In this document: positions 7,258-58,000 of the stretch, in pieces
Layout of the letters: each line of letters begins with the position of its first letter
How positions within the stretch are numbered: the stretch's first letter is position 1
Source of the DNA: Botryllus schlosseri
Taxonomy: Eukaryota
Reading direction: 5' to 3'
Assembly: GCA_051294905.1 (NCBI GenBank)
Contig: CM119372.1
Coordinates: forward strand, 40,426,001 to 40,490,000
Length of the DNA: 64,000 nucleotides
The notes under the pieces: model-generated
The model's database searches: none
What the model was told of the DNA's origin: nothing
Seen by the model: the letters and a program-made list of their open reading frames with translations, nothing else
Position numbers and translations under genes: made by a program

Positions 7258-8044
7258 ATGTACATTCGCTGGACACGGCGCAATCATCGGAAGCCAGCAA
7301 TCGAACCAATCTTATCTACAGACCCTGAACAAACTATCATTGGCCAGCTGATAATGCCGTCTGTTTAGGTCCGTTCTTGCGTAATGTGAAATATCGAATC
7401 ACGATGCAGGCAAAAACTCAGATATTATTTCTCAAAATTATCTAGCAAGCTCGGCTACTAGGAAGCCTGCTTATCAGATACGACTGATTGAAAAATCCGA
7501 GCGCACTCGGAGCATTTTGTAATGCGGACTCTCCTTAACACAATTAATATGTAAGGTGATTGTATTAAGGACGCTTCAGTAGTTCGTGAGTCCTATGTCC
7601 TTTTACTGGACAGGGCGCAATCTTCGGCAGCCAGCAATCGATCCAATGCTAGATCATATCTACAGAAGCTTGACATCATTGGCCAGCTGATAATCAACTC
7701 TGTTTAGGGCGACTCTTTTCGAAATTTGGAAATCGAATCACGATACAGGCTAAAACTCACATATTATTTCTCAAAATTATCTAGCAAGATCGGCTACTAG
7801 GAAGCCTGCTTATCAGATACGACTAATTGAAAAATCCGAGCGCACTCGGAGCATGTTGTATTGCGGACTCACCTTAACACAATCAATATGTAAGGTGATT
7901 GTATTACGGGCGCTTAAGTAGTTCGTGAGTCGTATGTACATTCGCTGGACACGGCGCAATCTTCGGAAGCCAGCAATCGAACCAATCTTATCTACAGACC
8001 CTGAACAAACTATCATTGGCCAGCTGATAATACCGTCTGTTTAG

Positions 8045-24200: not shown

Positions 24201-26003
24201 CAGCTGATAATACCGTCTGTTTAGATCGGTTCTTGCGTAATGTGAAATATCGAATCACGATGCAGTCCAAAACTCACATATTATTTCTCAAAATTATCTA
24301 GCAAGCTCGGCTCCTAGGAAGCCTGCTTATCAGGTACGACAAATTGAAAAATCCGAGGGCACCAGGAGCATTTTGTAATGCGGACTCGCCTTAAGACAAT
24401 CAATATGTAAGGTGATTGTATTACGGGCGCTTAAGTAGTTCGTGAGTCGTATGTACATTCGCTGGACACGGCGCAATCTTCGAAAGCCAGCAATCGAACC
24501 AATCTTATCTACAGAACCTGAACAAACCATCATTGGCCAGCTGAAAACACCGTATTTTAGGTCGGTTCTTGCGTAATGTTAAAAATCGAATCACGTTGCA
24601 GGCCAAAACTCACATATTATTTCTCAAAATTATCTAGCAAGCTCGGCTACTAGGAAGCCTGCTTATCAGATACGACTAATTGAAAAATCCGAGCGCACTC
24701 GGAGCATTTTGTAATGCGGACTCACCTTAAGACAATGAATATGTAAGGTGATTGTATTACGGGCGCTTGATTAGTTCTTGAGTCGTATGTCCTTTTACTG
24801 GACACGGCGCAATCTTCGGAAGCCAGCAATCGAACCAATCTCATCTACAGACCGTGAACAAACCATCATTGGCCAGCTGATAATACCGTCTGTTTAGGTC
24901 CGTTCCTGCGTAATGTGAAATATCGCATCACGATGCAGGCCAAAACTCACATATTATTTCTCAAAATTATCTAGCATGCTCGGCTCCTAGGAAGCCTGCT
25001 TATCAGGTACGACTAATTGAAAAATCCGAGCGCACCAGGAGCATTTTGTAATGCGGACTCACCTTAACACAATCAATATGTAAGGTGATTGTATTACGGG
25101 CACTTAAGTAGTTCGTGAGTCGTATGTCCTTTTACTGGACACGGCGCAATCTTCGGAAGCCAGCAATCGAACCAATCTTATCTACAGACCCTGAACAATT
25201 TATCATTGGCCAGCTGATAATACCGTCTGTTTCGGTCCGTTCCTGCGTAATGTGAAATATCGAATCACGATGCAGGCCAAAACTCACATATAATTTCTCA
25301 AAATTATCCAGCATGCTCGGCTCCTAGGAAGCCTGCTTATCAGGTACGACAAATTGAAAAATCCGAGCGCACTCGGAGCATTTTGTAATGCGGACTCACC
25401 TTAACACAATCAATATGTAAGATGATTGTATTACGGGCACTTGATTAGTTCGTGAGTCGTATGTACATTCGCTGGACACGGCGCAATCTTCGAAAGCCAG
25501 AAATCGATCCAATCTAATCTACAGAACCTGAACAAACCATCATTGGCCAGCTGATAATACCGTCTGTTTAGATCGGTTCTTGCGTAATGTGAAAAATCGA
25601 ATCACGATGCAGGCCAAAACTCACATATTATTTCTCAAAATTATCTAGCAAGCTAGGCTCCTACACTGTAAAAACTGTGGCCACCTTACAGAGGTGTTTC
25701 AAAAATCACCCAAAGGAGGTGGTATTTTCTCCACCCTTAAAGGGTGGTGGACTCCCCCACCTATTTTAGGTGGAAAATTTCCCTCCCCTATGCTATCGGT
25801 AAACCACCTCATCAGCCTATCCACATACCACCTCATCCTATCCGGATGTCTTCGTCAAACGACGTAGATGCGCACAACATCCGAATTAAATCTTCATAAT
25901 TCACGTTGACATAAATCACAACATGGCCATTATTCCAAAACTTTATTTTTAAATTAGTCACAGATTTTACCAAGTTTGGTGCGAACAGCAGAACTCATCT
26001 CTT

Positions 26004-34600: not shown

Positions 34601-37600
34601 GCAGGCCAAAACTCACATATTATTTCTCAAAATTATCTAGCAAGCTCGGCCACTGGGAAGCCTGCTTATCAGATACGAATAATTGAAAAATCCGAGCGCA
34701 CTCGGAGCATTTTGTAATGCGTACTCAGCTTAACACAATCAATATGTAAGATGATTGTATTACGGGCGCTTAAGTAGTTCGTGAGTCGTATGTACATTCG
34801 CTGGACACGGCGCAATCTTCGGAAGCCAGCAATCGAACCAATCTTATCTACAGACCCTGAACAAACTATGCTTGGCCAGCTGATAATACCGTCTGTTTAG
34901 TTCCGTTCCTGCGTAATGTGAAATATCGAATCACGATGCAGGCCAAAACTCACAGATTATTTCTCAAAATTATCTAGCAAGCTCGGCTACTAGGAAGCCT
35001 GCTTATCAGATACGACTAATTGAAAAATCCGAGCGCACTCGGAGCATTTTGTAATGCGGACTCACCTGAACACAATCAATATGTAAGGTGATTGTATTAC
35101 GGGCGCTTGATTAGTTCTTGAGTCGTATGTCCTTTTACTGGACACGGCGCAATCTTCGAAAGCCAGCAATCGAACCAATCTCATCTACAGACCGTGAACA
35201 AACCATCATTGGCCAGCTGATAATACCGTCTGTTTAGATCGGTTCTTGCGTAATGTGAAATATCGAATCACGATGCAGTCCAAAACTCACATATTATTTC
35301 TCAAAATTATCTAGCAAGCTCGGCTCCTAGGAAGCCTGCTTATCAGGTACGACAAATTGAAAAATCCGAGGGCACCAGGAGCATTTTGTAATGCGGACTC
35401 GCCTTAAGACAATCAATATGTAAGGTGATTGTATTACGGGCGCTTAAGTAGTTCGTGAGTCGTATGTACATTCGCTGGACACGGCGCAATCTTCGAAAGC
35501 CAGCAATCGAACCAATCTTATCTACAGAACCTGAACAAACCATCATTGGCCAGCTGAAAACACCGTATTTTAGGTCGGTTCTTGCGTAATGTTAAAAATC
35601 GAATCACGTTGCAGGCCAAAACTCACATATTATTTCTCAAAATTATCTAGCAAGCTCGGCTACTAGGAAGCCTGCTTATCAGGTACGACTAATTGAAAAA
35701 TCCGAGCGCACTCGGAGCATTTTGTAATGCGGACTCACCTTAACACAATCAATATGTAAGGTGATTGTATTACGGGCGCTTGATTAGTACTTGAGTCGTA
35801 TGTCCTTTTACTGGACACGGCGCAATCTTCGGAAGCCAGCAATCGAACCAATCTTATCTACAGACCCTGAACAAACTATGCTTGGCCAGCTGATAATACC
35901 GTCTGTTTAGTTCCGTTCCTGCGTAATGTGAAATATCGAATCACGATGCAGGCCAAAACTCACAGATTATTTCTCAAAATTATCTAGCAAGCTCGGCTAC
36001 TAGGAAGCCTGCTTATCAGATACGACTAATTGAAAAATCCGAGCGCACTCGGAGCATTTTGTAATGCGGACTCACCTTAAGACAATGAATATGTAAGGTG
36101 ATTGTATTACGGGCGCTTGATTAGTTCTTGAGTCGTATGTCCTTTTACTGGACACGGCGCAATCTTCGGAAGCCAGCAATCGAACCAATCTCATCTACAG
36201 ACCGTGAACAAACCATCATTGGCCAGCTGATAATACCGTCTGTTTAGGTCCGTTCCTGCGTAATGTGAAATATCGCATCACGATGCAGGCCAAAACTCAC
36301 ATATTATTTCTCAAAATTATCTAGCATGCTCGGCTCCTAGGAAGCCTGCTTATCAGGTACGACTAATTGAAAAATCCGAGCGCACCAGGAGCATTTTGTA
36401 ATGCGGACTCATCTTAACACAATCAATATGTAAGGTGATTGTATTACGGGCACTTAAGTAGTTCGTGAGTCGTATGTCCTTTTACTGGACACGGCGCAAT
36501 CTTCGGAAGCCAGCAATCGAACCAATCTTATCTACAGACCCTGAACAATTTATCATTGGCCAGCTGATAATACCGTCTGTTTCGGTCCGTTCCTGCGTAA
36601 TGTGAAATATCGAATCACGATGCAGGCCAAAACTCACATATAATTTCTCAAAATTATCTAGCATGCTCGGCTCCTAGGAAGCCTGCTTATCAGGTACGAC
36701 AAATTGAAAAATCCGAGCGCACTCGGAGCATTTTGTAATGCGGACTCACCTTAACACAATCAATATGTAAGATGATTGTATTACGGGCACTTGATTAGTT
36801 CGTGAGTCGTATGTACATTCGCTGGACACGGCGCAATCTTCGAAAGCCAGAAATCGATCCAATCTAATCTACAGAACCTGAACAAACCATCATTGGCCAG
36901 CTGATAATACCGTCTGTTTAGATCGGTTCTTGCGTAATGTGAAAAATCGAATCACGATGCAGGCCAAAACTCACATATTATTTCTCAAAATTATCTAGCA
37001 AGCTCGGCTCCTAGGAAGCCTGCTTATCAGGTACGACAAATTGAAAAATCCGAGGGCACCAGGAGCATTTTGTAATAATGCGGACTCGCCTTAAGACAAT
37101 CAATATGTAAGGTGATTGTATTACGGGCGCTTGATTAGTTCTTGAGTCGTATGTCCTTTTACTGGACACGGCGCAATCTTCGGAAGCCAGCAATCGAACC
37201 AATCTCATCTACAGACCGTGAACAAACCATCATTGGCCAGCTGATAATAAAGTCTGTTTAGATCGGTTCTTGCGTAATGTGAAATATCGAATCACGATGC
37301 AGTCCAAAACTCACATATTATTTCTCAAAATTATCTAGCAAGCTCGGCTCCTAGGAAGCCTGCTTATCAGGTACGACAAATTGAAAAATCCGAGGGCACC
37401 AGGAGCATTTTGTAATGCGGACTCGCCTTAAGACAATCAATATGTAAGGTGATTGTATTACGGGCGCTTAAGTAGTTCGTGAGTCGTATGTACATTCGCT
37501 GGACACGGCGCAATCTTCGAAAGCCAGCAATCGAACCAATCTTATCTACAGAACCTGAACAAACCATCATTGGCCAGCTGAAAACACCGTATTTTAGGTC

Positions 37601-40600
37601 GGTTCTTGCGTAATGTTAAAAATCGAATCACGTTGCAGGCCAAAACTCACATATTATTTCTCAAAATTATCTAGCAAGCTCGGCTACTAGGAAGCCTGCT
37701 TATCAGATACGACTAATTGAAAAATCCGAGCGCACTCGGAGCATTTTGTAATGCGGACTCACCTTAACACAATCAATATGTAAGGTGATTGTATTACGGG
37801 CGCTTGATTAGTACTTGAGTCGTATGTCCTTTTACTGGACACGGCGCAATCTTCGGAAGCCAGCAATCGAACCAATCTTATCTAGAGTCCGTGAACAAAC
37901 CTTCATTGGCCAGCTGATAATACCGTCTGTTTAGGTCCGTTCCTGCGTAATGTGAAATATCGAATCACGATGCAGGCCATAACTCACATATTATTTCTCA
38001 AAATTATCTAGCAAGCTCGGCTACTAGGAAGCCTGCTTATCAAATACGACTAATTGAAAAATCCGAGCGCACTCGGAGCATTTTGTAATGCGGACTCACC
38101 TTAACACAATCAATATGTAAGGTGATTGTATTACGGGCGCTTGATTAGTACTTGAGTCGTATGTCCTTTTACTGGACACGGCGCAATCTTCGGAAGCCAG
38201 CAATCGAACCAATCTTATCTACAGACCCTGAACAAACTATGCTTGGCCAGCTGATAATACCGTCTGTTTAGTTCCGTTCCTGCGTAATGTGAAATATCGA
38301 ATCACGATGCAGGTCAAAACTCACAGATTATTTCTCAAAATTATCTAGCAAGCTCGGCTACTAGGAAGCCTGCTTATCAGATACGACTAATTGAAAAATC
38401 CGAGCGCACTCGGAGCATTTTGTAATGCGGACTCACCTTAAGACAATCAATATGTAAGGTGATTGTATTACGGGCGCTTGATTAGTTCTTGAGTCGTATG
38501 TCCTTTTACTGGACACGGCGCAATCTTCGGAAGCCAGCAATCGAACCAATCTCATCTACAGACCGTGAACAAACCATCATTGGCCAGCTGATAATACCGT
38601 CTGTTTAGGTCCGTTCCTGCGTAATGTGAAATATCGAATCACGATGCAGGCCAAAACTCACATATTATTTCTCAAAATTATCTAGCATGCTCGGCTCCTA
38701 GGAAGCCTGCTTATCAGGTACGACTAATTGAAAAATCCGAGCGCACCAGGAGCATTTTGTAATGCGGACTCACCTTAACACAATCAATATGTAAGGTGAT
38801 TGTATTACGGGCACTTAAGTAGTTCGTGAGTCGTATGTCCTTTTACTGGACACGGCGCAATCTTCGGAAGCCAGCAATCGAACCAATCTTATCTACAGAC
38901 CCTGAACAATTTATCATTGGCCAGCTGATAATACCGTCTGTTTCGGTCCGTTCCTGCGTAATGTGAAATATCGAATCACGATGCAGGCCAAAACTCGCAT
39001 ATAATTTCTCAAAATTATCTAGCATGCTCGGCTCCTAGGAAGCCTGCTTATCAGGTACGACAAATTGAAAAATCCGAGCGCACTCGGAGCATTTTGTAAT
39101 GCGGACTCACCTTAACACAATCAATATGTAAGATGATTGTATTACGGGCACTTGATTAGTTCGTGAGTCGTATGTACATTCGCTGGACACGGCGCAATCT
39201 TCGAAAGCCAGAAATCGATCCAATCTAATCTACAGAACCTGAACAAACCATCATTGGCCAGCTGATAATACCGTCTGTTTAGATCGGTTCTTGCGTAATG
39301 TGAAAAATCGAATCACGATGCAGGCCAAAACTCACATATTATTTCTCAAAATTATCTAGCAAGCTCGGCCACTGGGAAGCCTGCTTATCAGATACGAATA
39401 ATTGAAAAATCCGAGCGCACTCGGAGCATTTTGTAATGCGGACTCACCTTAACACAATCAATATGTAAGATGATTGTATTACGGGCGCTTAAGTAGTTCG
39501 TGAGTCGTATGTACATTCGCTGGACACGGCGCAATCTTCGGAAGCCAGCAATCGAACCAATCTTATCTACAGACCCCGAACAAACTATGCTTGGCCAGCT
39601 GATAATATCGTCTGTTTAGTTCCGTTCCTGCGTAATGTGAAATATCGAATCACGATGCAGGCCAAAACTCACAGATTATTTCTCAAAATTATCTAGCAAG
39701 CTCGGCTACTAGGAAGCCTGCTTATCAGATACGACTAATTGAAAAATCCGAGCGCACTCGGAGCATTTTGTAATGCGGACTCACCTTAAGACAATCAATA
39801 TGTAAGGTGATTGTATTACGGGCGCTTGATTAGTTCTTGAGTCGTATGTCCTTTTACTGGACACGGCGCAATCTTCGGAAGCCAGCAATCGAACCAATCT
39901 CATCTACAGACCGTGAACAAACCATCATTGGCCAGCTGATAATACCGTCTGTTTAGATCGGTTCTTGCGTAATGTGAAATATCGAATCACGATGCAGTCC
40001 AAAACTCACATATTGTTTCTCAAAATTATCTAGCAAGCTCGGCTCCTAGGAAGCCTGCTTATCAGGTACGACAAATTGAAAAATCCGAGGGCACCAGGAG
40101 CATTTTGTAATGCGGACTCGCCTTAAGACAATCAATATGTAAGGTGATTGTATTACGGGCGCTTAAGTAGTTCGTGAGTCGTATGTACATTCGCTGGACA
40201 CGGCGCAATCTTCGAAAGCCAGCAATCGAACCAATCTTATCTACAGAACCTGAACAAACCATCATTGGCCAGCTGAAAACACCGTATTTTAGGTCGGTTC
40301 TTGCGTAATGTTAAAAATCGAATCACGTTGCAGGCCAAAACTCACATATTATTTCTCAAAATTATCTAGCAAGCTCGGCTACTAGGAAGCCTGCTTATCA
40401 GATACGACTAATTGAAAAATCCGAGCGCACTCGGAGCATTTTGTAATGCGGACTCACCTTAACACAATCAATATGTAAGGTGATTGTATTACGGGCGCTT
40501 GATTAGTACTTGAGTCGTATGTCCTTTTACTGGACACGGCGCAATCTTCGGAAGCCAGCAATCGAACCAATCTTATCTAGAGTCCGTGAACAAACCTTCA

Positions 40601-43600
40601 TTGGCCAGCTGATAATACCGTCTGTTTAGGTCCGTTCCTGCGTAATGTGAAATATCGAATCACGATGCAGGCCATAACTCACATATTATTTCTCAAAATT
40701 ATCTAGCAAGCTCGGCTACTAGGAAGCCTGCTTATCAAATACGACTAATTGAAAAATCAGAGCGCACTCGGAGCATTTTGTAATGCGGACTCACCTTAAC
40801 ACAATCAATATGTAGGGTGATTGTATTACGGCGCTTGATTAGTACTTGAGTCGTATGTCCTTTTACTGGACACGGCGCAATCTTCGGAAGCCAGCAATCG
40901 AACCAATCTTATCTACAGACCCTGAACAAACTATGCTTGGCCAGCTGATAATACCGTCTGTTTAGTTCCGTTCCTGCGTAATGTGAAATATCGAATCACG
41001 ATGCAGGCCAAAACTCACAGATTATTTCTCAAAATTATCTAGCAAGCTCGGCTACTAGGAAGCCTGCTTATCAGATACGACTAATTGAAAAATCCGAGCG
41101 CACTCGGAGCATTTTGTAATGCGGACTCACCTTAAGACAATCAATATGTAAGGTGATTGTATTACGGGCGCTTGATTAGTTCTTGAGTCGTATGTCCTTT
41201 TACTGGACACGGCGCAATCTTCGGAAGCCAGCAATCGAACCAATCTCATCTACAGACCGTGAACAAACCATCATTGGCCAGCTGATAATACCGTCTGTTT
41301 AGGTCCGTTCCTGCGTAATGTGAAATATCGCATCACGATGCAGGCCAAAACTCACATATTATTTCTCAAAATTATCTAGCATGCTCGGCTCCTAGGAAGC
41401 CTGCTTATCAGGTACGACTAATTGAAAAATCCGAGCGCACCAGGAGCATTTTGTAATGCGGACTCACCTTAACACAATCAATATGTAAGGTGATTGTATT
41501 ACGGGCACTTAAGTAGTTCGTGAGTCGTATTTCCTTTTACTGGACACGGCGCAATCTTCGGAAGCCAGCAATCGAACCAATCTTATCTACAGACCCTGAA
41601 CAAACTATCATTGGCCAGCAGATAATACCGTCTGTTTCTGTCCGTTCCTGCGTAATGTGAAATATCGAATCACGATGCAGGCCAAAACTCACATATAATT
41701 TCTCAAAATTATCTAGCATGCTCGGCTCCTAGGAAGCCTGCTTATCAGGTACGACAAATTGAAAAATCCGAGCGCACTCGGAGCATTTTGTAATGCGGAC
41801 TCACCTTAACACAATCAATATGTAAGATGATTGTATTACGGGCGCTTGATTAGTTCGTGAGTCGTATGTACATTCGCTGGACACGGCGCAATCTTCGAAA
41901 GCCAGAAATCGATCCAATCTAATCTACAGAACCTGAACAAACCATCATTGGCCAGCTGATAATACCGATTGTTTAGATCGGTTCTTGCGTAATGTGAAAA
42001 ATCGAATCACGATGCAGGCCAAAACTCACATATTATTTCTCAAAATTATCTAGCAAGCTCGGCCACTTGGAAGCCTGCTTATCAGATACGAATAATTGAA
42101 AAATCCGAGCGCACTCGGAGCATTTTGTAATGCGGACTCACCTTAACACAATCAATATGTAAGATGATTGTATTACGGGCGCTTAAGTAGTTCGTGAGTC
42201 GTATGTACATTCGCTGGACACGGCGCAATCTTCGGAAGCCAGCAATCGAACCAATCTTATCTACAGACCCTGAACAAACTATCATTGGCCAGCTGATAAT
42301 ACCGTCTGTTTAGTTCCGTTCCTGCGTAATGTGAAATATCGAATCACGATGCAGGCCAAAACTCACAGATTATTTCTCAAAATTATCTAGCAAGCTCGGC
42401 TACTAGGAAGCCTGCTTATCAGATACGACTAATTGAAAAATCCGAGCGCACTCGGAGCATTTTGTAATGCGGACTCACCTTAACACAATCAATATGTAAG
42501 ATGACTGTATTACGGGCGCTTAAGTAGTTTGTGAGTCGTATGTACATTTGCTGGACACGGCGCAATCTTCGGAAGCCAGCAATCGAACCAATCTTATCTA
42601 CAGACCCTGAACAAACTATCATTGGCCAGCAGATAATACCGTCTGTTTCGGTCCGTTCCTGCGTAATGTGAAATATCGAATCACGATGCAGGCCAAAACT
42701 CACATATAATTTCTCAAAATTAACTAGCATGCTCGGCTCCTAGGAAGCCTGCTTATCAGATACGAATAATTGAAAAATCCGAGCGCACTCGGAGCATTTT
42801 GTAATGCGGACTCACCTTAACACAATCAATATGTAAGATGATTGTATTACGGGCGCTTGATTAGTTCGTGAGTCGTATGTACATTCGCTGGACACGGCGC
42901 AATCTTCGAAAGCCAGAAATCGATCCAATCTAATCTACAGAACCTGAACAAACCATCATTGGCCAGCTGATAATACCGTTTGTTTAGATCGGTTCTTGCG
43001 TAATGTGATAAATCGAATCACGATGCAGGCCAAAACTCACTTATTATTTCTCAAAATTATCTAGCAAGCTCGGCCACTAGGAAGCCTGCTTATCAGATAC
43101 GAATAATTGAAAAATCCGAGCGCACTCGGAGCATTTTGTAATGCGGACTCACCTTAACACAATCAATATGTAAGATGATTGTATTACGGGCGCTTAAGTA
43201 GTTCGTGAGTCGTATGTACATTCGCTGGACACGGCGCAATCTTCGGAAGCCAGCAATCGAACCAATCTTATCTACAGACCCTGAACAAACTATCATTGGC
43301 CAGCTGATAATACCGTCTGTTTAGTTCCGTTCCTGCGTAATGTGAAATATCGAATCACGATGCAGGCCAAAACTCACAGATTATTTCTCAAAATTATCTA
43401 GCAAGCTCGGCTACTAGGAAGCCTGCTTATCAGATACGACTAATTGAAAAATCCGAGCGCACTCGGAGCATTTTGTAATGCGGACTCACCTTAACACAAT
43501 CAATATGTAAGATGATTGTATTACGGGCGCTTAAGTAGTTTGTGAGTCGTATGTACATTTGCTGGACACGGCGCAATCTTCGGAAGCCAGCAATCGAACC

Positions 43601-46600
43601 AATCTTATCTACAGACCCTGAACAAACTATCATTGGCCAGCAGATAATACCGTCTGTTTCGGTCCGTTCCTGCGTAATGTGAAATATCGAATAACGATGC
43701 AGGCCAAAACTCACATATAATTTCTCAAAATTATCTAGCATGCTCGGCTCCTAGGAAGCCTGCTTATCAGGTACGACAAATTGAAAAATCCGAGCGCACT
43801 CGGAGCATTTTGTAATGCGGACTCACCTTAACACAATCAATATGTAAGATGATTGTATTACGGGCGCTTGATTAGTTCGTGAGTCGTATGTACATTCGCT
43901 GGACACGGCGCAATCTTCGAAAGCCAGAAATCGATCCAATCTAATCTACAGAACCTGAACAAACCATCATTGGCCAGCTGATAATACCGTTTGTTTAGAT
44001 CGGTTATTGCGTAATGTGAAAAATCGAATCACGATGCAGGCCAAAACTCACATATTATTTCTCAAAATTATCTAGCAAGCTCGGCCACTAGGAAGCCTGC
44101 TTATCAGATACGAATAATTGAAAAATCCGAGCGCACTCGGAGCATTTTGTAATGCGGACTCACCTTAACACAATCAATATGTAAGATGATTGTATTACGG
44201 GCGCTTAAGTAGTTCGTGAGTCGTATGTACATTCGCTGGACACGGCGCAATCTTCGGAAGCCAGCAATCGAACCAATCTTATCTACATACCCTGAACAAA
44301 CTATCATTGACCAGCTGATAATACCGTCTGTTTAGTTCCGTTCCTGCGTAATGTGAAATATCGAATCACGATGCAGGCCAAAACTCACAGATTATTTCTC
44401 AAAATTATCTAGCAAGCTCGGCTACTAGGAAGCCTGCTTATCAGATACGACTAATTGAAAAATCCGAGCGCACTCGGAGCATTTTGTAATGCGGACTCAC
44501 CTTAAGACAATCAATATGTAAGATGATTGTATTACGGGCGCTTGATTAGTTCTTGAGTCGTATGTCCTTTTACTGGACACGGCGCAATCTTCGGAAGCCA
44601 GCAATCGAACCAATCTTATCTACAGACCGTGAACAAACCATCATTGGCCAGCTGATAATACCGTCTGTTTAGATCGGTTCTTGCGTAATGTGAAATATCG
44701 AATCACGATGCAGGCCAAAACTCACATATTATTTCTCAAAATTATCTAGCAAGCTCGGCTCCTAGGAAGCCTGCTTATCAGGTACGACAAATTGAAAAAT
44801 CCGAGGGCACCAGGAGCATTTTGTAATGCGGACTCGTCTTAAGACAATCAATATGTAAGGTGATTGTATTACGGGCGCTTAAGTAGTTCGTGAGTCGTAT
44901 GTACATTCGCTGGACACGGCGCAATCTTCGAAAGCCAGCAATCGAACCAATCTTATCTACAGAACCTGAACAAACCATCATTGGCCAGCTGAAAACACCG
45001 TATTTTAGGTCGGTTCTTGCGTAATGTTAAAAATCGAATCACGTTGCAGGCCAAAACTCACATATTATTTCTCAAAATTATCTAGCAAGCTCGGCTACTA
45101 GGAAGCCTGCATATCAGATACGACTAATTGAAAAATCCGAGCGCACTCGGAGCATTTTGTAATGCGGACTCACCTTAACACAATCAATATGTAAGGTGAT
45201 TGTATTACGGGCGCTTGATTAGTACTTGAGTCGTATGTCCTTTTACTGGACACGGCGCAATCTTCGGAAGCCAGCAATCGAACCAATCTTATCTAGAGTC
45301 CGTGAACAAACCTTCATTGGCCAGCTGATAATACCGTCTGTTTAGGTCCGTTCCTGCGTAATGTGAAATATCGAATCACGATGCAGGCCATAACTCACAT
45401 ATTATTTCTCAAAATTATCTAGCAAGCTCGGCTACTAGGAAGCCTGCTTATCAAATACGACTAATTGAAAAATCCGAGCGCACTCGGAGCATTTTTTAAT
45501 GCGGACTCACCTTAACACAATCAATATGTAAGATGATTGCATTACGGGCGCTTAAGTAGTTCGTGAGTCGTACGTACATTCGCTGGACACGGCGCAATCT
45601 TCGGAAGCCAGCAATCGAACCAATCTTATCTACAGACCCTGAACAAACTATCATTGGCCAGCTGATAATACCGTCTGCTTAGTTCCGTTCCTGCGTAATG
45701 TGAAATATCGAATCACGATGCAGGCCAAAACTCACAGATTATTTCTCAAAATTATCTAGCAAGCTCGGCTACTAGGAAGCCTGCTTATCAGATACGACTA
45801 ATTGAAAAATCCGAGCGCACTCGGAGCATTTTGTAATGCGGACTCACCTTAACACAATCAATATGTAAGATGATTGTATTAAGGGCGCTTAAGTAGTTTG
45901 TGAGTCGTATGTACATTTGCTGGACACGGCGCAATCTTCGGAAGCCATCAATCGAACCAATCTTATCTACAGACCCTGAACAAACTATCATTGGCCAGCA
46001 GATAATACCGTCTGTTTCGGTCCGTTCCTGCGTAATGTGAAATATCGAATCACGATGCAGGCCAAAACTCACATATAATTTCTCAAAATTATCTAGCATG
46101 CTCGGCTCCTAGGAAGCCTGCTTATCACGTACGACAAATTGAAAAATCCGAGCGCACTCGGAGCATTTTGTAATGCGGACTCACCTTAACACAATCAATA
46201 TGTAAGATGATTGTATTACGGGCGCTTGATTAGTTCGTGAGTCGTATGTACATTCGCTGGACACGGCGCAATCTTCGAAAGCCAGAAATCGATCCAATCT
46301 AATCTACAGAACCTGAACAAACCATCATTGGCCAGCTGATAATACCGTTTGTTTAGATCGGTTATTGCGTAATGTGAAAAATCGAATCACGATGCAGGCC
46401 AAAACTCACATATTATTTCTCAAAATTATCTAGCAAGCTCGGCCACTAGGAAGCCTGCTTATCAGATACGAATAATTGAAAAATCCGAGCGCACTCGGAG
46501 CATTTTGTAATGCGGACTCACCTTAAGACAATCAATATGTAAGATGATTGTATTACGGGCGCTTGATTAGTTCTTGAGTCGTATGTCCTTTTACTGGACA

Positions 46601-47023
46601 CGGCGCAATCTTCGGAAGCCAGCAATCGAACCAATCTTATCTACAGACCGTGAACAAACCATCATTGGCCAGCTGATAATACCGTCTGTTTAGATCGGTT
46701 CTTGCGTAATGTGAAATATCGAATCACGATGCAGGCCAAAACTCACAGATTATTTCTCAAAATTATCTAGCAAGCTCGGCTACTAGGAAGCCTGCTTATC
46801 AGATACGACTAATTGAAAAATCCGAGCGCACTCGGAGCATTTTGTAATGCGGACTCACCTTAACACAATCAATATGTAAGATGATTGTATTACGGGCGCT
46901 TGATTAGTTCGTGAGTCGTATGTACATTCGCTGGACACGGCGCAATCTTCGGAAGCCAGCAATCGAACCAATCTTATCTACAGACCGTGAACAAACCATC
47001 ATTGGCCAGCTGATAATACCGTC

Positions 47024-47399
47024 TGTTCGCGCTTGCGCATTTTATTTGTTAATCCTGATTTTAGTAATCATTTGTAATCAAGCCTTTTCAGATAGGCTGT
47101 TCTTACCGCTATATAAAGCGTCTGCGGACCACCATTTGTTGGTTATTTACGTTGACGCAAAATTAATTGTAAATCTTACATTAGTTACGTTTATCTTGAT
47201 TCTGTTACGTTCGCCGGCTGTATGTTGCTGTTGCTGTGCTAAGTATGAGCTATCATCATCAAGTTGGGCGTGCTATTGTGTTATTAAAGTCATGGATCAC
47301 GTGTATGAATTACAACGATTAGCATCCGTAGATAACCCAATAGACAGGCTTCTGCGCCTATAATCGGCAGCGCATGATTCAGACTGCCGCGCAGAAACA
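47024..47399 (+). repeat. 5' LTR (376 bp)
   Basis: Direct repeat of 48632-49007. Confidence 0.95.
47110..47117 (+). promoter_or_regulatory. Putative LTR TATA box
   Basis: TATATAAA about 86 bp into the LTR, in the orientation implied by the PPT. Confidence 0.6.
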
Positions 47400-47414
47400 A
47401 TTTACAATTAATTT
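47400..47414 (+). promoter_or_regulatory. Putative self-complementary primer-binding site
   Basis: ATTTACAATTAATTT is the exact reverse complement of LTR bases 47160-47174 (AAATTAATTGTAAAT). Confidence 0.65.
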
Positions 47415-48257
47415 GCAATCTACAATCAATTCGCCGATGGAAGATTTACTTTCGAATGCTCTCTACATTGAAGAGTGCGTTTTCTCTTGGACGGAGCGGA
47501 CGATTGCGATGTTTCCATATTCTATGTTCATCGTTCACCGTCTCGCCAATCAAGAGTTCGGTTTCATTCCGTCAGTTCAGTTTTCGTATTCCAACAACGC
47601 GTTGATCTTGTTTACAGCATTCTCCCTCCGTTTGTCTGAAAGTCGCATCGATTGCATGGCTTCCACATTCAGGATCATTGCAAAGATGGCAGCGCAACTG
47701 CATGGAGAGTATATTATCTCTCCAGATGATATCACCAGGGACCATATTCACTCGGGTGCTTGAGTCACAGTTGCCGACAGAAATGCACAAACGTTGGATG
47801 CGGAAGATTGAAACGGCCTCTTGGAGATGATCGAGAACTGCACCTGACGATGACGCGGATTGGCATTCAAGGCAGCAGAGGGTCGAGACGGTACAATTTC
47901 TCTGCACATACATTCATTCCTCTGCGCAGTCCCTTCAGTTTCGCCCCTGCTACCGTTGCCTCATTGTATTGACGCTCACCGTCTGTTAGATTTGTGTCAG
48001 GCACCTCGCATCGAAACGAGAATTCGGCTATTTGAAGAATTTCTACCGAGCAATGCCGGAAATATTGTTATGATTCCGGAATATTCATTTCGAGCTATTG
48101 CACGTTGCGGGGACGCCTCTAAGATTATTTCGACTTTTCCGAAGGTGACGAATTTTCCAGAGTGAGATACGATTCATCCGACATCGAGAGTCATCATCAC
48201 GCGCCTAAGTGAAACTGTCCAAGTTGAGTCGCGTTCGATTGTCTGCGTTCATTCATA

Positions 48258-48478
48258 GTGATTTATTCTCGTCGCTTGTAGACATGCTGAACGCCTCGTT
48301 ACCAATTCAAAGTGATCTATTATCATCGCTTGTGTAGTTGCTGACTGCTTCCATATTTATTCCAAATAATTTATTCTTCTCGCCTGTAGAGAGTCGAACG
48401 CCACCCTACCATTTAAAAAGTGATTCATTCTCATCGCTTGTAGAGCTGGTGAACGCCTTTCTACTATTTAGGGTGATA
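48258..48478. repeat. Four degenerate 54-bp tandem units inside the LTR element
   Basis: gtgatttattctcatcgcttgtaga-like motif at 48258, 48312, 48366 and 48420. Confidence 0.8.
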
Positions 48479-48631
48479 TATATATATTGTATTTTGGATC
48501 GGAGGTTCAGCAGCTCTTTGTATGTTGGTCATTGTACAATCTCACTTTGCCTATGTGGATGATGATTCGAGTGATTCGGACCGTGTATTACATTGATAAT
48601 TCTGTTGACTGGGATCAGTCAAATGGAGGAG

Positions 48632-49007
48632 TGTTCGCGCTTGCGCATTTTATTTGTTAATCCTGATTTTAGTAATCATTTGTAATCAAGCCTTTTCAGA
48701 TAGGCTGTTCTTACCGCTATATAAAGCGTCTGCGGACCACCATTTGTTGGTTATTTACGTTGACGCAAAATTAATTGTAAATCTTACATTAGTTACGTTT
48801 ATCTTGATTCTGTTACGTTCGCCGGCTGTATGTTGCTGTTGCTGTGCTAAGTATGAGCTATCATCATCAAGTTGGGCGTGCTATTGTGTTATTAAAGTCA
48901 TGGATCACGTGTATGAATTACAACGATTAGCATCCGTAGATAACCCAATAGACAGGCTTCTGCGCCTATAATCGGCAGCGCATGATTCAGACTGCCGCGC
49001 AGAAACA
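48632..49007 (+). repeat. 3' LTR (376 bp)
   Basis: Direct repeat of 47024-47399, preceded by the PPT. Confidence 0.95.
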
Positions 49008-52000
49008 CCGTCTGTTTAGATCGGTTCTTGCGTAATGTGAAATATCGAATCACGATGCAGGCCAAAACTCACATATTATTTCTCAAAATTATCTAGCAAG
49101 CTCGGCTCCTAGGAAGCCTGCTTATCAGGTACGACTAATTGAAAAATCCGAGCGCACTCGGAGCATTTTGTAATGCGGACTCACCTTAACACAATCAATA
49201 TGTAAGATGATTGTATTACGGGCGCTTAAGTAGTTCGTGAGTCGTATGTACATTCGCTGGACACGGCGCAATCTTCGAAAGCCAGCAATCGAACCAATCT
49301 TATCTACAGAACCTGAACAAACCATCATTATCCAGCTGAAAACACCGTATTTTAGGTCGGTTCTTGCGTAATGTTAAAAATCGAATCACGTTGCAGGCCA
49401 AAACTCACATATTATTTCTCAAAATTATCTAGCAAGCTCGGCTACTAGGAAGCCTGCATATCAGATACGACTAATTGAAAAATCCGAGCGCACTCGGAGC
49501 ATTTTGTAATGCGGACTCACCTTAACACAATCAATATGTAAGGTGATTGTATTACGGGCGCTTGATTAGTACTTGAGTCGTATGTCCTTTTACTGGACAC
49601 GGCGCAATCTTCGGAACCAGCGATCGAACCAATCTTATCTAGAGTCCGTGAACAAACCTTCATTGGCCAGCTGATAATACCGTCTGTTTAGGTCCGTTCC
49701 TGCGTAATGTGAAATATCGAATCACGATGCAGGCCATAACTCACATATTATTTCTCAAAATTATCTAGCAAGCTCGGCTACTAGGAAGCCTGCTTATCAA
49801 ATACGACTAATTGAAAAATCCGAGCGCACTCGGAGCATTTTTTAATGCGGACTCACCTTAACACAATCAATATGTAAGATGATTGCATTACGGGCGCTTA
49901 AGTAGTTCGTGAGTCGTACGTACATTCGCTGGACACGGCGCAATCTTCGGAAGCCAGCAATCGAACCAATCTTATCTACAGACCCTGAACAAACTATCAT
50001 TGGCCAGCTGATAATACCGTCTGTTTAGGTCCGTTCCTGCGTAATGTGAAATATCGAATCACGATGCAGGCCAAAACTCACGTATTATTTCTCAAAATTA
50101 TCTAGCATGCTCGGCTCCTAGGAAGCCTGCTTATCAGGTACGACAAATTGAGAAATCCGAGCGCACCAGGAGCATTTTGTATTGCGGACTAACCTTAACA
50201 CAATCAATATGTAAGGTGATTGTATTACGGGCACTTGAGTAGTTCGTGAGTCGTATGTCCTTTTACTGGACACGGCGCAATCTTAGGAAGCCAGCAATCG
50301 AACCAATCTTATCTACAGACCCTGAACAAACCATCATTGGCCAGCTGATAACACCGTCTGTTTAGATCGGTTCTTGCGTAATGTGAAAAATCGAATCACG
50401 ATGCAGGCCAAAACTCACATTTTATTTCTCAAAATTATCTAGCAAGCTCGGCTACTAGGAAGCCTGTTTATCAGATACGACTAATTGAAAAATCCGAGCG
50501 CACTCGGAGCATTTTGTAATGCGGACTCACCTTAACACAATCAATATGTAAGATGATTGTATTACGGGCGCTTAAGTAGTTTGTGAGTCGTATGTACATT
50601 TGCTGGACACGGTGCAATCTTCGGAAGCCAGCAATCGAACCAATCTTATCTACAGACCCTGAACAAACTGTCATTGGCCAGCTGATAATACCGTCTGTTT
50701 CGGTCCGTTCCTGCGTAATGTGAAATATCGAATCACGATGCAGGCCAAAACTCACATTTTATTTCTCAAAATTATCTAGCAAGCTCGGCTACTAGGAAGC
50801 CTGTTTATCAGATACGACTAATTGAAAAATCCGAGCGCACTCGGAGCATTTTGTAATGCGGACTCACCTTAACACAATCAATATGTAAGATGATTGTATT
50901 ACGGGCGCTTAAGTAGTTTGTGAGTCGTATGTACATTTGCTGGACACGGCGCAATCTTCGGAAGCCAGCAATCGAACCAATCTTATCTACAGACCCTGAA
51001 CAAACTATCATTGGCCAGCTGATAATACCGTCTGTTTCGGTCCGTTTCTGCGTAATGTGAAATATCGAATCACGATGCAGGCCAAAACTCAGATATAATT
51101 TCTCAAAATTATCTAGCATGCTCGGCTCCTAGGAAGCCTGCTTATCAGGTACGACAAATTGAAAAATCCGAGCGCACTCGGAGCATTTTGTAATGCGGAC
51201 TCACCTTAACACAATCAATATGTAAGATGATTGTATTACGGGCGCTTAAGTAGTTCGTGAGTCGTATGTACATTCGCTGGACACGGCGCAATCTTCGGAA
51301 GCCAGCAATCGAACCAATCTTATCTACAGACCCTGAACAAACTATCATTGGCCAGCTGATAATACCGTCTGTTTAGTTCCGTTCCTGCGTAATGTGAAAT
51401 ATCGAATCACGATGCAGGCCAAAACTCACAGATTATTTCTCAAAATTATCTAGCAAGCTCGGCTACTAGGAAGCCTGCTTATCAGATACGACTAATTGAA
51501 AAATCCGAGCGCACTCGGAGCATTTTGTAATGCGGACTCACCTTAAGACAATCAATATGTAAGATGATTGTATTACGGGCGCTTGATTAGTTCTTGAGTC
51601 GTATGTCCTTTTACTGGACACGGCGCAATCTTCGGAAGCCAGCAATCGAACCAATCTTATCTACAGACCGTGAACAAACCATCATTGGCCAGCTGATAAT
51701 ACCGTCTGTTTAGATCGGTTCTTGCGTAATGTGAAATATCGAATCACGATGCAGGCCAAAACTCACATATTATTTCTCAAAATTATCTAGCAAGCTCGGC
51801 TCCTAGGAAGCCTGCTTATCAGGTACGACAAATTGAAAAATCCGAGGGCACCAGGAGCATTTTGTAATGCGGACTCGTCTTAAGACAATCAATATGTAAG
51901 GTGATTGTATTACGGGCGCTTAAGTAGTTCGTGAGTCGTATGTACATTCGCTGGACACGGCGCAATCTTCGAAAGCCAGCAATCGAACCAATCTTATCTA

Positions 52001-55000
52001 CAGAACCTGAACAAACCATCATTGGCCAGCTGAAAACACCGTATTTTAGGTCGGTTCTTGCGTAATGTTAAAAATCGAATCACGTTGCAGGCCAAAACTC
52101 ACATATTATTTCTCAAAATTATCTAGCAAGCTCGGCTACTAGGAAGCCTGCATATCAGATACGACTAATTGAAAAATCCGAGCGCACTCGGAGCATTTTT
52201 TAATGCGGACTCACCTTAACACAATCAGTATGTAAGATGATTGCATTACGGGCGCTTAAGTAGTTCGTGAGTCGTACGTACATTCGCTGGACACGGCGCA
52301 ATCTTCGGAAGCCAGCAATCGAACCAATCTTATCTACAGACCCTGAACAAACTATCATTGGCCAGCTGATAATACCGTCGGTTTAGGTCCGTTCCTGCGT
52401 AATGTGAAATATCGAATCACGATGCAGGCCAAAACTCACATATTATTTCTCAAAATTATCTAGCATGCTCGGCTCCTAGGAAGCCTGCTTATCAGGTACG
52501 ACAAATTGAGAAATCCGAGCGCACCAGGAGCATTTTGTATTGCGGACTCACCTTAACACAATCAATATGTAAGGTGATTGTATTACGGGCACTTGAGTAG
52601 TTCGTGAGTCGTATGTCCTTTTACTGGACACGGCGCAATCTTAGGAAGCCAGCAATCGAACCAATCTTATCTACAGACCCTGAACAAACCATCATTGGCC
52701 AGCTGATAACACCGTCTGTTTAGATCGGTTCTTGCGTAATGTGAAAAATCGAATCACGATGCAGGCCAAAACTCACATTTTATTTCTCAAAATTATCTAG
52801 CAAGCTCGGCTACTAGGAAGCCTGTTTATCAGATACGACTAATTGAAAAATCCGAGCGCACTCGGAGCATTTTGTAATGCGGACTCACCTTAACACAATC
52901 AATATGTAAGATGATTGTATTACGGGCGCTTAAGTAGTTTGTGAGTCGTATGTACATTTGCTGGACACGGCGCAATCTTCGGAAGCCAGCAATCGAACCA
53001 ATCTTATCTACAGACCCTGAACAAACTATCATTGGCCAGCTGATAATACCGTCTGTTTCGGTCCGTTCCTGCGTAATGTGAAATATCGAATCACGATGCA
53101 GGCCAAAACTCACATTTTATTTCTCAAAATTATCTAGCAAGCTCGGCTACTAGGAAGCCTGTTTATCAGATACGACTAATTGAAAAATCCGAGCGCCTTC
53201 GGAGCATTTTGTAATGCGGACTCACCTTAACACAATCAATATGTAAGATGATTGTATTACGGGCGCTTAAGTAGTTTGTGAGTCGTATGTACATTTGCTG
53301 GACACGGCGCAATCTTCGGAAGCCAGCAATCGAACCAATCTTATCTACAGACCCTGAACAAACTATCATTGGCCAGCTGATAATACCGTCTGTTTCGGTC
53401 CGTTTCTGCGTAATGTGAAATATCGAATCACGATGCAGGCCAAAACTCACATATAATTTCTCAAAATTATCTAGCATGCTCGGCTCCTAGGAAGCCTGCT
53501 TATCAGGTACGACAAATTGAAAAATCCGAGCGCACTCGGAGCATTTTGTAATGCGGACTCACCTTAACACAATCAATATGTAAGATGATTGTATTACGGG
53601 CGCTTGATTAGTTCGTGAGTCGTATGTACATTCGCTGGACACGGCGCAATCTTCGAAAGCCAGAAATCGATCCAATCTAATCTACAGAACCTGAACAAAC
53701 CATCATTGGCCAGCTGATGATACCGTCTGTTTAGATCGGTTCTTGCGTAATGTGAAAAATCTAATCACGATGCAGGCCAAAACTCACATATTATGTCTCG
53801 AAATTATCTAGCAAGCTCAGCCACTAGGAAGCCTGCTTATCAGATACGAATAATTGAAAAATCCGAGCGCACTCGGAGCATTTTGTAATGCGGACTCACC
53901 TTAACACAATCAATATGTAAGATGATTGTATTACGGGTGCTTAAGTAGTTCGTGAGTCGTATGTACATTCGCTGGACACGGCGCAATCTTCGGAAGCCAG
54001 CAATCGAACCAATCTTATCTACAGACCCTGAACAAACTATCATTGGCCAGCTGATAATACCGTCTGTTTAGTTCCGTTCCTGCGTAATGTGAAATATCGA
54101 ATCACGATGCAGGCCAAAACTCACATATTATTTCTCAAAATTATCTAGCAAGCTCGGCTACTAGGAAGCCTGCTTTTCAGATACGACTAATTGAAAAATC
54201 CGAGCGCACTCGGAGCATTTTGTAATGCGGACTCACCTTAAGACAATCAATATGTAAGGTGATTGTATTACGGGCGCTTGATCAGTTCTTGAGTCGTATG
54301 TCCTTTTACTGGACACGACGCAATCTTCGGAAGCCAGCAATCGAACCAATCTTATCTAGAGTCCGTGAACAAACCATCATTGGCCAGCTGATAATACCGT
54401 CTGTTTAGGTCCGTTCCTGCGTAATGTGAAATATCGAATCACGATGCAGGCCAAAACTCACATATTATTTCTCAAAATTATCTAGCAAGCTCGGCTACTA
54501 GGAAGCCTGCTTATCAAATACGAGTAATTGAAAAATCCGAGCGCACTCGGAACATTTTGTAATGCGGACTCACCTTAACACAATCAATATGTAGGATGAT
54601 TGTATTACGGGCGCTTAAGTAGTTCGTGAGTCGTATGTACATTCGCTGGACACGGCGCAATCTTCGGAAGCCAGCAATCGAACAAATCTTATCTACAGAC
54701 CCTGAACAAACTATCATTGGCCAGCTGATAATACCGTCTGTTTAGGTCCGTTCCTGCGTAATGTGAAATATCGAATCACGATGCAGGCCAAAACTCACAT
54801 ATTATTTCTCAAAATTATCTAGCATGCTCGGCTCCTAGGAAGCCTGCTTATCAGGTACGACAAATTGAAAAATCCGAGCGCACCAGGAGCATTTTGTAAT
54901 GCGGACTCACCTTAACACAATCAATATGTAAGATGATTGTATTACGGGCGCTTGATTAGTTCGTGAGTCGTATGTACATTCGCTGGACACGGCGCAATCT

Positions 55001-58000
55001 TCGAAAGCCAGAAATCGATCCAATCTAATCTACAGAACCTGAACAAATCATCATTGGCCAGCTGATAATACCGTCTGTTTAGATCGGTTCTTGCGTAATG
55101 TGAAAAATCGAATCACGATGCAGGCCAAAACTCACATATTATGTCTCAAAATTATCTAGCAAGCTCAGCCACTAGGAAGCCTGCTTATCAGATACGAATA
55201 ATTGAAAAATCCGAGCGCACTCGAAGCATTTTGTAATGCGGACTCACCTTAACACAATCAATATGTAAGATGATTGTATTACGGGCGCTTAAGTAGTTTG
55301 TGAGTCGTATGTACATTCGCTGGACACGGCGCAATCTTCGGAAGCCAGCAATCGAACCAATCTTATCTACAGACCCTGAACAAACTATCATTGGCCAGCT
55401 GATAATACCGTCTGTTTAGGTCCGTTCCTGCGTAATGTGAAATATCGAATCACGATGCAGGCCAAAACTCACATATAATTTCTCAAAATTATCTAGCATG
55501 CTCGGCTCCTAGGAAGCCTGCTTATCAGGTACGACAAATTGAAAAATCCGAGCGCACCAGGAGCATTTTGTAATGCGGACTCACTTTAACACAATCAATA
55601 TGTAAGGTGATTGTATTACGGGCGCTTAAGTAGTTCGTGAGTCGTATGTACACTCGCTGGACACGGCGCAATCTTCTAAAGCCAGCAATCGATCCAATCT
55701 TATCTACAGACCCTGAACAAACTATCATTGGCCAGCTGATAATACCGTCTGTTTAGGTCCGTTCTTGCGTAATGTGAAAAATCTAATCACGATGCAGGCC
55801 AAAACTCACATATTATTTCTCAATATTATCTAGCAAGCTCGGCTACTAGGAAGCCTGCTTATCAGATACGACTAATTGAAAAATCCGAGTGCACTCGGAG
55901 CATTTTGTAATGCGGACTCACCTTAACACAATCAATATGTAAGATGATTGTATTACGGGCGCTTAAGTAGTTTATGAGTCGTATGTACATTTGCTAGACA
56001 CGGCGCGATCTTCGGAAGCCAGCAATCGAACCAATCTTATCTAGAGTCCGTGAACAAACCTTCATTGGCCCGCTGATAATACCGTCTGTTTAGGTCAGTT
56101 CCTTCGTAATGTGAAATATCGAATCACGATGCAGGCCATAACTCACATATTATTTCTCAAAATTATCTAGCAAGCTCGGCTACTAGGAAGCCTGCTTATC
56201 AAATACGACTAATTGAAAAATCCGAGCGCACTCGGAGCATTTTGTAATGCGGACTCACCTTAACACAATCAATATGTAAGATGATTGCATTACGGGCGCT
56301 TAAGTAGTTCGTGAGTCGTATGTACATTCGCTGGACACGGCGCAATCTTCGAAAGCCAGCAATCGAACCAATCTTATCTACAGACCCTGAACAAACTATC
56401 ATTGGCCCGCTGATAATACCGTCTGTTTAGGTCCGTTCCTGCGTAATGTGAAATATCGAATCACGATGCAGGCCATAACTCACATATTATTTCTCAAAAT
56501 TATCTAGCATGCTCGGCTCCTAGGAAGCCTGCTTATCAGGTACGACAAATTGAAAAATCCGAGCGCACTCGGAGCATTTTGTAATGCGGACTCACCTTAA
56601 CACAATCAATATGTAAGATGATTGTATTACGGGCGCTTGATTAGTTCGTGAGTCGTATGTACATTCGCTGGACACGGCGCAATCTTCGAAAGCCAGAAAT
56701 CGATCCAATCTAATCTACAGAACCTGAACAAACCATCATTGGCCAGCTGATAATACCGTCTGTTTAGATCGGTTCTTGCGTAATGTGAAAAATCGAATCA
56801 CGATGCAGGCCAAAACTCACATATTATGTCTCAAAATTATCTAGCAAGCTCAGCCACTAGGAAGCCTGCTTATCAGATACGAATAATTGAAAAATCCGAG
56901 CGCACTCGAAGCATTTTGTAATGCGGACTCACCTTAACACAATCAATATGTAAGATGATTGTATTACGGGCGCTTAAGTAGTTTGTGAGTCGTATGTACA
57001 TTCGCTGGACACGGCGCAATCTTCGGAAGCCAGCAATCGAACCAATCTTATCTACAGACCCTGAACAAACTATCATTGGCCAGCTGATAATACCGTCTGT
57101 TTAGGTCCGTTCCTGCGTAATGTGAAATATCGAATCACGATGCAGGCCAAAACTCACATATAATTTCTCAAAATTATCTAGCATGCTCGGCTCCTAGGAA
57201 GCCTGCTTATCAGGTACGACAAATTGAAAAATCCGAGCGCACCAGGAGCATTTTGTAATGCGGACTCACTTTAACACAATCAATATGTAAGGTGATTGTA
57301 TTACGGGCGCTTAAGTAGTTCGTGAGTCGTATGTACACTCGCTGGACACGGCGCAATCTTCTAAAGCCAGCAATCGATCCAATCTTATCTACAGACCCTG
57401 AACAAACTATCATTGGCCAGCTGATAATACCGTCTGTTTAGGTCCGTTCTTGCGTAATGTGAAAAATCTAATCACGATGCAGGCCAAAACTCACATATTA
57501 TTTCTCAATATTATCTAGCAAGCTCGGCTACTAGGAAGCCTGCTTCTCAGATACGACTAATTGAAAAATCCGAGCGCACTCGGAGTATTTTGTAATGCGG
57601 ACTCACCTTAACACAATCAATATGTAAGATGATTGTATTACGGGCGCTTAAGTAGTTCGTGAGTCGTATGTCCTTTTACTGGACACGGCGCAATCGTCGT
57701 AAGCTAGCAATCGAACCAATCTTATCTACAGACCCTGAACAAGCCATCATTGGCCAGCTGATAATACCGTCTGTTTAGATCGGTTCTTGCGTAATGTGAA
57801 ATATCGAATCACGATGCAGGCCAAAACTCACATTTTATTTCTCAAAATTATCTAGCAAGCTCGGCTAATAGGAAGCCTGCTTATCAGATACGACTAATTG
57901 AAAAATCCGAGCGCACTCGGAGCATTTTGTAATGCGGACTCACCTTAACACAATCAATATGTCAAATGATTGTATTACGGGCGCTTAAGTAGTTTGTGAG

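Follow-up and report, generated by a model that had tools for sequence, protein, structure and literature searches.

A non-coding LTR retrotransposon of Botryllus schlosseri with a primer site complementary to its own LTR, a candidate for self-priming

We describe a long terminal repeat (LTR) element from Botryllus schlosseri that lies in a stretch of 64,000 nucleotides, hereafter the window (NCBI GenBank assembly GCA_051294905.1, contig CM119372.1, positions 40,426,001 to 40,490,000 of the forward strand; our coordinates count from the first base of the window). The element, which we call the mini element, occupies 47024-49007 (1984 bp) and interrupts an array of a 337-bp satellite. It consists of a 376-bp 5' LTR (47024-47399, TGTT...AACA), an internal region of 1232 bp that is non-coding (47400-48631) and a 3' LTR (48632-49007) that is identical to the 5' LTR (0/376 differences), and all of its parts are read on the + strand. 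The same 5 nt, CCGTC, are found at both ends as a target-site duplication (47019-47023 on the left and 49008-49012 on the right), and the satellite unit runs on across the insertion. A polypurine tract-like sequence, AAATGGAGGAG (48621-48631), adjoins the 3' LTR, and similar G-rich tracts also precede the 3' LTRs of the autonomous families of this genome that we describe below. The element therefore has the structural features of an LTR retrotransposon, namely TG...CA direct repeats, a target-site duplication within the 4-6 bp range, a polypurine tract and a primer site. Because no substitution yet separates its two LTRs, the insertion is recent, and together with the intact 5-bp duplication this agrees with an earlier note on this DNA, which had proposed recent mobility. 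For the window itself, this is an ordinary, recently inserted transposon within satellite DNA.

The primer site of the mini element is not of the TGG type that is typical of tRNA priming. The sequence that directly follows the 5' LTR (47400-47417) is instead complementary to the element's own LTR, and the first TGG is found at 47438, 38 nt downstream of the end of the 5' LTR. The core of the site, 47400-47414 (ATTTACAATTAATTT), and the LTR segment 47160-47174 (AAATTAATTGTAAAT) were reported by a repeat finder as arms of 15 nt with 100% complementarity, 225 nt apart. RNAduplex lengthens the pairing by G47157-C47158 with G47415-C47416, with one bulged A at 47159, and the whole of the proposed self-primer arm in the LTR is thus 47157-47174. 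A47400, which comes directly after the LTR-terminal CA, has U47174 as its partner, and this polarity is the one that a primer requires. The earlier note had described the missing TGG-type site, the perfect 15-nt complement, the bulged GC extension and the priming polarity, and we recovered all four. The core site has 13% G+C over its 15 nt, and the arm is repeated in the 3' LTR at 48768-48782.

Other parts of the 5' LTR can be assigned putative functions. TATATAAA at 47110-47117 is a candidate TATA box that is kept in 12/12 aligned copies of the family and may act as the promoter, and ATTAAA at 47283-47288, which is AATAAA in 3/12 aligned copies, may act as the polyadenylation signal. A G+C-rich hairpin is predicted in U5 at 47350-47396; it ends 3 nt before the primer site and has a folding energy of -18.8 kcal/mol when folded alone.

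As a control for the primer site, we scored 24-nt windows by the longest stretch perfectly complementary to the element's own LTR, and we compared the window directly after the LTR with the others and with shuffled sequences. The longest complement is 15 nt after the LTR, as compared to 9 nt or less in the 198 other internal windows and 11 nt or less in 500 shuffles, so that 15 nt was reached by none of the controls (0/198 windows and 0/500 shuffles). The self-complementary site is real, and chance does not account for it.

The mini element has no detectable coding capacity, as had been claimed in the earlier note. None of its four open reading frames (ORFs) tested (4/4) has a match to a Pfam family, tblastn with the Gypsy polyproteins of families A, B and C of this genome (described below) gave no match to the element, and no Rfam family was found in it. 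The longest ORF (47374-47763) encodes a protein that is 66% identical to that of the C14 copy while the DNA is 87% identical, which is about what three independent codon positions would give without selection. In other copies this ORF is split between frames or has stops. The 3' half of the internal region contains weak direct repeats (48257-48458, 40-74 nt, 78-88% identity), which are present in most copies and were not picked up by Tandem Repeats Finder (TRF).

The genome that holds the window (495 Mb, 219 contigs) has at least 42 scored matches to the LTR plus primer site, with 40 of 252 first-look candidates scored. The 22-nt junction between the LTR end and the primer site has 24 matches at up to 2 mismatches, 17 of them exact and 4 with 1 mismatch; the other 3, with 2 mismatches, were rejected as unrelated DNA that does not belong to the family. 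The earlier note had raised the case that other copies have a normal TGG primer site and that this copy is a deletion product. What we found is the non-TGG, self-complementary site at 21/21 family junctions and a TGG site at 0. The 18-nt LTR arm has 113 genome matches at up to 1 mismatch, as compared to 2 for a reversed control, and individual inspection of the 113 is incomplete. Given 113 arm matches and 21 junctions, solo LTRs are common in the mini family. The copies that could be read are all of the 2-kb type or carry nested insertions.

One copy of the latter kind is 6.3 kb long (L031, G000:C15:8552000-8559300) and has a nested insertion of ~4.3 kb at about 1680-5900. The minus strand of this insertion holds an open frame of 190 aa with a match to the hAT dimerisation domain (E = 9e-8). 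The C12 copy is likewise interrupted. At G000:C1:24482556-24485984 (L015, L022, L023), we observed three mini LTRs in tandem with two internal regions between them and an inverted 44-nt LTR fragment at one of the junctions, an arrangement that may have come from recombination between elements.

We aligned 12 of the 5' ends of the mini family, which have an overall identity of 86-100%. An exact 15-nt arm is found in 9/12 of these copies, an exact site in 10/12 and both in 7/12. Two copies of the family deviate at the same base pair of the duplex. In L007 (G000:C9:27767566), the site has T>C and both arms are unchanged, and in L035 (G000:C1:22568955, 22570652), both LTR arms have A>G and the site is unchanged. 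This is the pattern expected if the primer passes on the site while the 3' R region passes on the arm, but it may be coincidence.

To compare the mini element with other LTR families of the genome, we searched for integrase domains (1389 candidates, 150 scored), selected 12 more elements by open-frame length and strand, and examined their LTR ends. With the mini element, the sample is 13 LTR elements in 11 families. In 8 of the 11 families, a perfect complement of 12-18 nt to the element's own LTR begins 0-2 nt after the 5' LTR. These families are the mini family (no ORF, 376-bp LTR, complement of 15 nt), A (ORF of 1206 aa, 210-bp LTR, 16 nt), D (1238 aa, 203-bp LTR, 16 nt and a G-U pair), E (1246 aa, LTR length not fixed and its 5' end unclear, 12 nt followed by a G-U pair and 4 more), F (1261 aa, LTR of 215 bp by BLAST with the end moved 6 nt, 12 nt), I (1264 aa, 184-bp LTR, 13 nt), E2/E3 (1224 and 1210 aa, 260-bp LTR, 13 nt in copy E3), and H (1279 aa, only 92 nt of the LTR read, 18 nt). 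The observed length was reached by 0/500 shuffles for mini, A, D, E, F, I and H and by 1/500 for E3, and no other window in these families reached it.

The paired primers and sites are six unrelated sequences, one in the mini element, one in A, F, H and B, and one each in D, E, I and E2/E3. A and H have the proximal GTTAATAAAA/TTTTATTAAC in common, while distally A pairs TTTTCA with TGAAAA, and H pairs TTCATTTA with TAAATGAA. Since the distal arms of A and H differ on both strands, this is compensatory change. Within family D (L052), 15/18 junctions and 42/80 LTR arms are identical to the reference copy, the copy that we examined has 100% identical LTRs, and the family looks very young. The duplex within this family (18 junctions, 80 arms) has five one-sided transitions, four of them keeping a G-U pair, which are too few to interpret.

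Two unrelated families of the sample have TGG-type sites. Family C (L049, G000:C11:1341300-1349299) has a single ORF of 1401 aa that is 25% identical to A, and 160-bp LTRs; the TGG-type site TTTGGCGACGAGG follows its LTR, and its longest self-complement is 4 nt. Family J (L096, G000:C3:24009766-24010966) has an ORF of 1389 aa and 331-bp LTRs, with the TGG-type site TGGTGACCCCGACGTGAT after the LTR and a longest self-complement of 7 nt. We take the site of family J to be a tRNA-Trp site, as in the CsRn1 clade. Because C and J carry TGG-type sites, the self-complementary site is specific to particular lineages and reflects neither the genome as a whole nor the method.

Families A and B have a gag-like domain, an aspartic protease, a reverse transcriptase, RNase H and an integrase in one ORF. 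The two share 52% identity, Ty3 Gag-Pol is their best relative with a solved structure (E = 4e-65), and the KHW motif of their gag N-termini also occurs in D, E, E2, F and I. Based on these predicted proteins, we place A and B in Ty3/Gypsy in general. We found no match to Chromo in A and B at E up to 0.01, and PF00385 (Chromo) is in 0/120 of the listed relatives of the autonomous families. The named relatives, at 52-58% identity, are from Ciona ('K02A2.6'), Mytilus, Trichuris and a psyllid. The earlier note had compared the element to those of Tf1/sushi type. Since the autonomous look-alikes have no chromodomain, this comparison holds as a likeness of mechanism and does not establish membership of that clade. 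Single-ORF elements of ~4 kb that carry such names are of the Mag lineage, and the autonomous families described here may be Mag-like. The LTRs of A, D and I start with TGTGGTG, an LTR-end motif that points to the CsRn1 clade in Table 3 of PMC3601003. The features given for CsRn1 in the relevant part of PMC2582038 are a tRNA-Trp primer site and a 4-bp target duplication; since the primer sites of A, D and I are self-complementary and their target duplications are 5 bp long, we rejected this clade for them.

The anatomy of the mini element, the conservation of that anatomy in its family, and the same architecture with other sequences in seven autonomous Ty3/Gypsy families are established by these observations. 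Self-priming is known from the fission-yeast element Tf1, which has an 11-nt primer released by an RNase H cut and makes a 5-bp target duplication. PMC4600332 and PMC5006619 describe how the Tf1 mRNA loops back with a 5' segment to the sequence just downstream of the LTR, and how reverse transcription is primed after a cut. We believe that Tf1-like self-priming is probably the best reading for the non-autonomous ~2-kb family.

In the mechanism that we propose, the RNA would start in the 5' LTR at or upstream of 47159-47160. The segment 47160-47174 would fold back over R-U5 and pair with 47400-47414, closing a structured domain that ends in the U5 hairpin, and this pairing could take place within one RNA or between two RNAs. 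A Ty3/Gypsy reverse transcriptase provided in trans would then cut after U47174 with its RNase H, and the freed 3' OH would be extended from the neighbour of A47400 into U5, from 47399 back to 47175, or about 225 nt. The LTR would end exactly at the first paired base because extension would start beside A47400. Given ATTAAA at 47283-47288, the ~225-nt product could pair with the 3' R. Later strand transfers would follow as in any LTR element, with the primer site rebuilt from the primer, and the proteins would come from another element.

Predicted folds are consistent with the pairing. In the minimum free energy (MFE) structures, the arms pair with a mean pair probability of 0.83-0.98 for mini, A and D; for the mini element, 12-15 of the 15 pairs form with a mean probability of 0.83-0.96. 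The predicted fold of the mini leader has z = -2.33, with 1/200 shuffles equally stable. The U5 hairpin at 47350-47396, a stem-loop similar to U5-IR, is present in both the MFE and the centroid predictions.

A number of results weigh against self-priming, and they are of several kinds. The first concerns the autonomous partner. The earlier note had supposed that such a partner exists and could be collected by sequence search, and in the genome four kinds of search gave no element that shares the LTR, the primer site or the internal sequence. A whole-genome search for the junction pattern, allowing up to 2 mismatches, gave only the family and 3 unrelated sites; a DNA search with the internal region gave 75 candidates, of which 40 were scored and all of these were family members; a protein search with the longest ORF gave family matches only; and tblastn and blastn against the sampled Gypsy families gave none. 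Of the sampled families, E2/E3 comes closest to the TGTT...AACA ends of the mini element. The 6.3-kb C15 copy was considered as a partner and rejected, as it is a family member with a nested hAT-type insertion. Outside the genome, a metagenome scan gave 28 loci of 25-58% identity, with an LTR pair in 1/28 (partial, 90%). No reading frame of more than 348 aa was found in the 8 loci checked, and these loci are unusable for a test of the primer site.

The second concerns the transcript. RNA reads on the element are few (24 bulk and 71 single-cell, in addition to contigs of two older runs), and these few reads have no pile-up of molecule starts or ends and point neither towards nor away from the proposed transcript start. 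The reads also cover U3 and continue from the LTR into other flanks, and none falls on the 5' part of the internal region. The TATA box at 47110 would imply a start at ~47140, a guess based on this motif, which places the arm ~20 nt inside the RNA, unlike in Tf1. On the same assumption of a start ~30 nt downstream of the TATA box, the arm would be at ~+14 in H and ~+50 in A. With a predicted start ~20 nt upstream of the arm, the primer may therefore not be the very 5' end of the RNA, and it might carry a 5' tail. Alternatively, the transcript could start at the arm itself. An initiator-like motif, TCAGTT, is found inside the arm of A and F, and CA precedes the arm of the mini element.

The third concerns the conservation of the pairing. 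Within the mini family, a compensatory double change is found in 0/12 aligned copies and a one-sided change, in either arm of the duplex, in 5/12. The case for covariation thus rests on the comparison between families, and the expectation in the earlier note that complementarity would be kept in relatives is borne out between families (8/11, with differing sequences) and has no double change to show within the mini family. In family F, the LTR end was placed 6 nt past the end given by BLAST, with two LTR mismatches accepted. Family B has a complement of only 9 nt, which is reached by 3/627 windows and 5/500 shuffles. The complement has one mismatch in both LTRs of copy E2, and a one-base bulge in copy E4. 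Lastly, no tRNA gene came up in the window, nor in the 355 kb of host DNA that were scanned, a small part of the 495-Mb genome.

Of the other explanations, the one that fares best is that the stem is a leader structure with no role in priming, which masks the 5' polyadenylation signal or closes a domain for packaging or dimerisation while another primer acts. Masking would distinguish the 5' LTR from the 3' LTR because the pairing partner exists only after the 5' LTR. The LTR arm holds AATAAA in A, B, E, F and H and ATTAAA in I, and the folding predictions have a stable R-U5 domain with the arms at its base. However, the arm is off the signal in mini, D and E2/E3 (in the mini element, the signal is 110 nt downstream), so masking is not a general explanation. 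A leader structure also leaves unexplained why the pairing is 0-2 nt from the LTR end in every family, and why a TGG site is missing there from these elements when C and J have one. We consider it unlikely that the stem has no priming role, although the two roles may coexist, with masking as an added function.

Priming at 47400-47414 by a host RNA, such as a tRNA half, a mitochondrial tRNA or another small RNA, would make the match to the LTR incidental or derived, and we consider this very improbable. Some copia-type elements use internal tRNA halves, according to a passage of PMC6317226, and the host tRNA set lies outside the 355 kb scanned. But the site has no TGG and is very poor in G+C, and the 18-nt arm has 113 genome matches, which is what LTR copies would lead one to expect, with 2 for the reversed control. 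The six unrelated primer sequences each match their own LTR, and a host primer cannot explain such pairs because each family would need its own host RNA that had also been copied into its LTR. Finally, it is hardly credible that the inverted repeat arose by chance, or by a single inverted duplication that the family has since carried: both arms are A+T-rich, which raises the rate of chance matches, and the mini family has no compensatory change, but no control window or shuffle reached 15 nt, and 7 other families have a complement of different sequence at this same position.

The rest of the window is mostly satellite. The 337-bp unit fills 9270-25663, 29591-47027 and 49007-64000 in arrays of about 49, 52 and 45 units with 92-93% matches, and a diverged relative of 339 bp is found at 7258-8044. 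The satellite is also interrupted by an insertion of 3.9 kb at 25664-29590, which has the terminal inverted repeats CACTGTAAAAA...TTTTTACAGTG and an apparent TA duplication. No ORF of 120 aa or more was found in this insertion, and it is probably a non-autonomous DNA transposon.

Self-priming elements have been described before. Like Tf1 and Tf2 of Schizosaccharomyces pombe and Tj1 of S. japonicus, the mini element has no tRNA site and the sequence after its LTR complements its own LTR transcript. The 5-bp target duplication and the stem-loop beside the primer site are also common to the Tf1-type elements and the mini element, and the autonomous look-alikes have a single gag-pol ORF as Tf1 does. 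There are differences as well. The complement is 15 nt in the mini element and 12-18 nt in its sister families, as compared to 11 nt in Tf1, in keeping with the suggestion in the earlier note that the primer could be longer. The arm begins at the first base of the RNA in Tf1 and is possibly 14-50 nt inside it here, a TATA-based guess. Unlike Tf1, the mini element is non-coding and no chromodomain is found in its sister families A and B, and the elements described here are known from sequence alone.

To our knowledge, self-priming has been proven only for fission-yeast elements and has otherwise been inferred, in chromoviruses of fungi, vertebrates and mosses and in one group of plant copia elements. 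In the passages of PMC4600332 on this subject, self-priming is given for Tf1, Tf2 and Tj1 and is extended by inference to 'hosts from fungi to vertebrates', and in those of PMC6317226 it is inferred in plant Tcn1 chromoviruses and TAR copia elements. The inferred self-primers that appear in the relevant parts of PMC6934838, PMC6317226 and PMC4600332 have the same sequence signature as the elements described here. These come from fungi, vertebrates or plants, and those of them that are Gypsy elements are chromoviruses, whereas the nearest named relatives of the autonomous families here are invertebrate proteins. In the literature that we searched, nothing links self-priming to invertebrate or Mag-type Gypsy elements, although an earlier description is possible.

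[quoted passage not shown] At 1984 bp with 376-bp LTRs, the mini element exceeds the limits for TRIMs stated in a section of PMC6934838 (<1000 bp, with repeats of 100-250 bp). TRIMs are described with tRNA sites or with none identified, in contrast to the self-complementary site of the mini element. Taken as sequence, the evidence supports, but does not prove, that the mini element belongs to the already known self-priming type of LTR retrotransposon, in a non-autonomous form.

More tentatively, a lineage of Ty3/Gypsy elements without a chromodomain, with at least 7 autonomous families, may have swapped tRNA priming for self-priming, with the 2-kb element exploiting the same trick while making no protein; we hold this to be possible, but somewhat doubtful. 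In such a lineage, one stem could both mask the 5' polyadenylation site and supply the primer of 12-18 nt. The named relatives of the autonomous families, at 53-64% identity, span tunicates, molluscs, nematodes and insects, and if this proposal is true, self-priming would extend beyond the Tf1/sushi chromovirus clade into a major metazoan Gypsy group. In this genome, the signature of self-priming is found in a non-coding element and in many Gypsy families without a chromodomain, with the tRNA-primed families as internal controls. If confirmed, this would widen the known range of tRNA-independent priming and would explain why standard LTR annotation reports no primer binding site (PBS) for such elements. 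It would also provide a simple annotation test, in which the 20 nt after the LTR are compared with the element's own LTR, and a natural series of primer/site pairs for studying how RNase H chooses its cut. We believe that the part worth following is the metazoan Gypsy lineage that has no chromodomain and that may prime itself.

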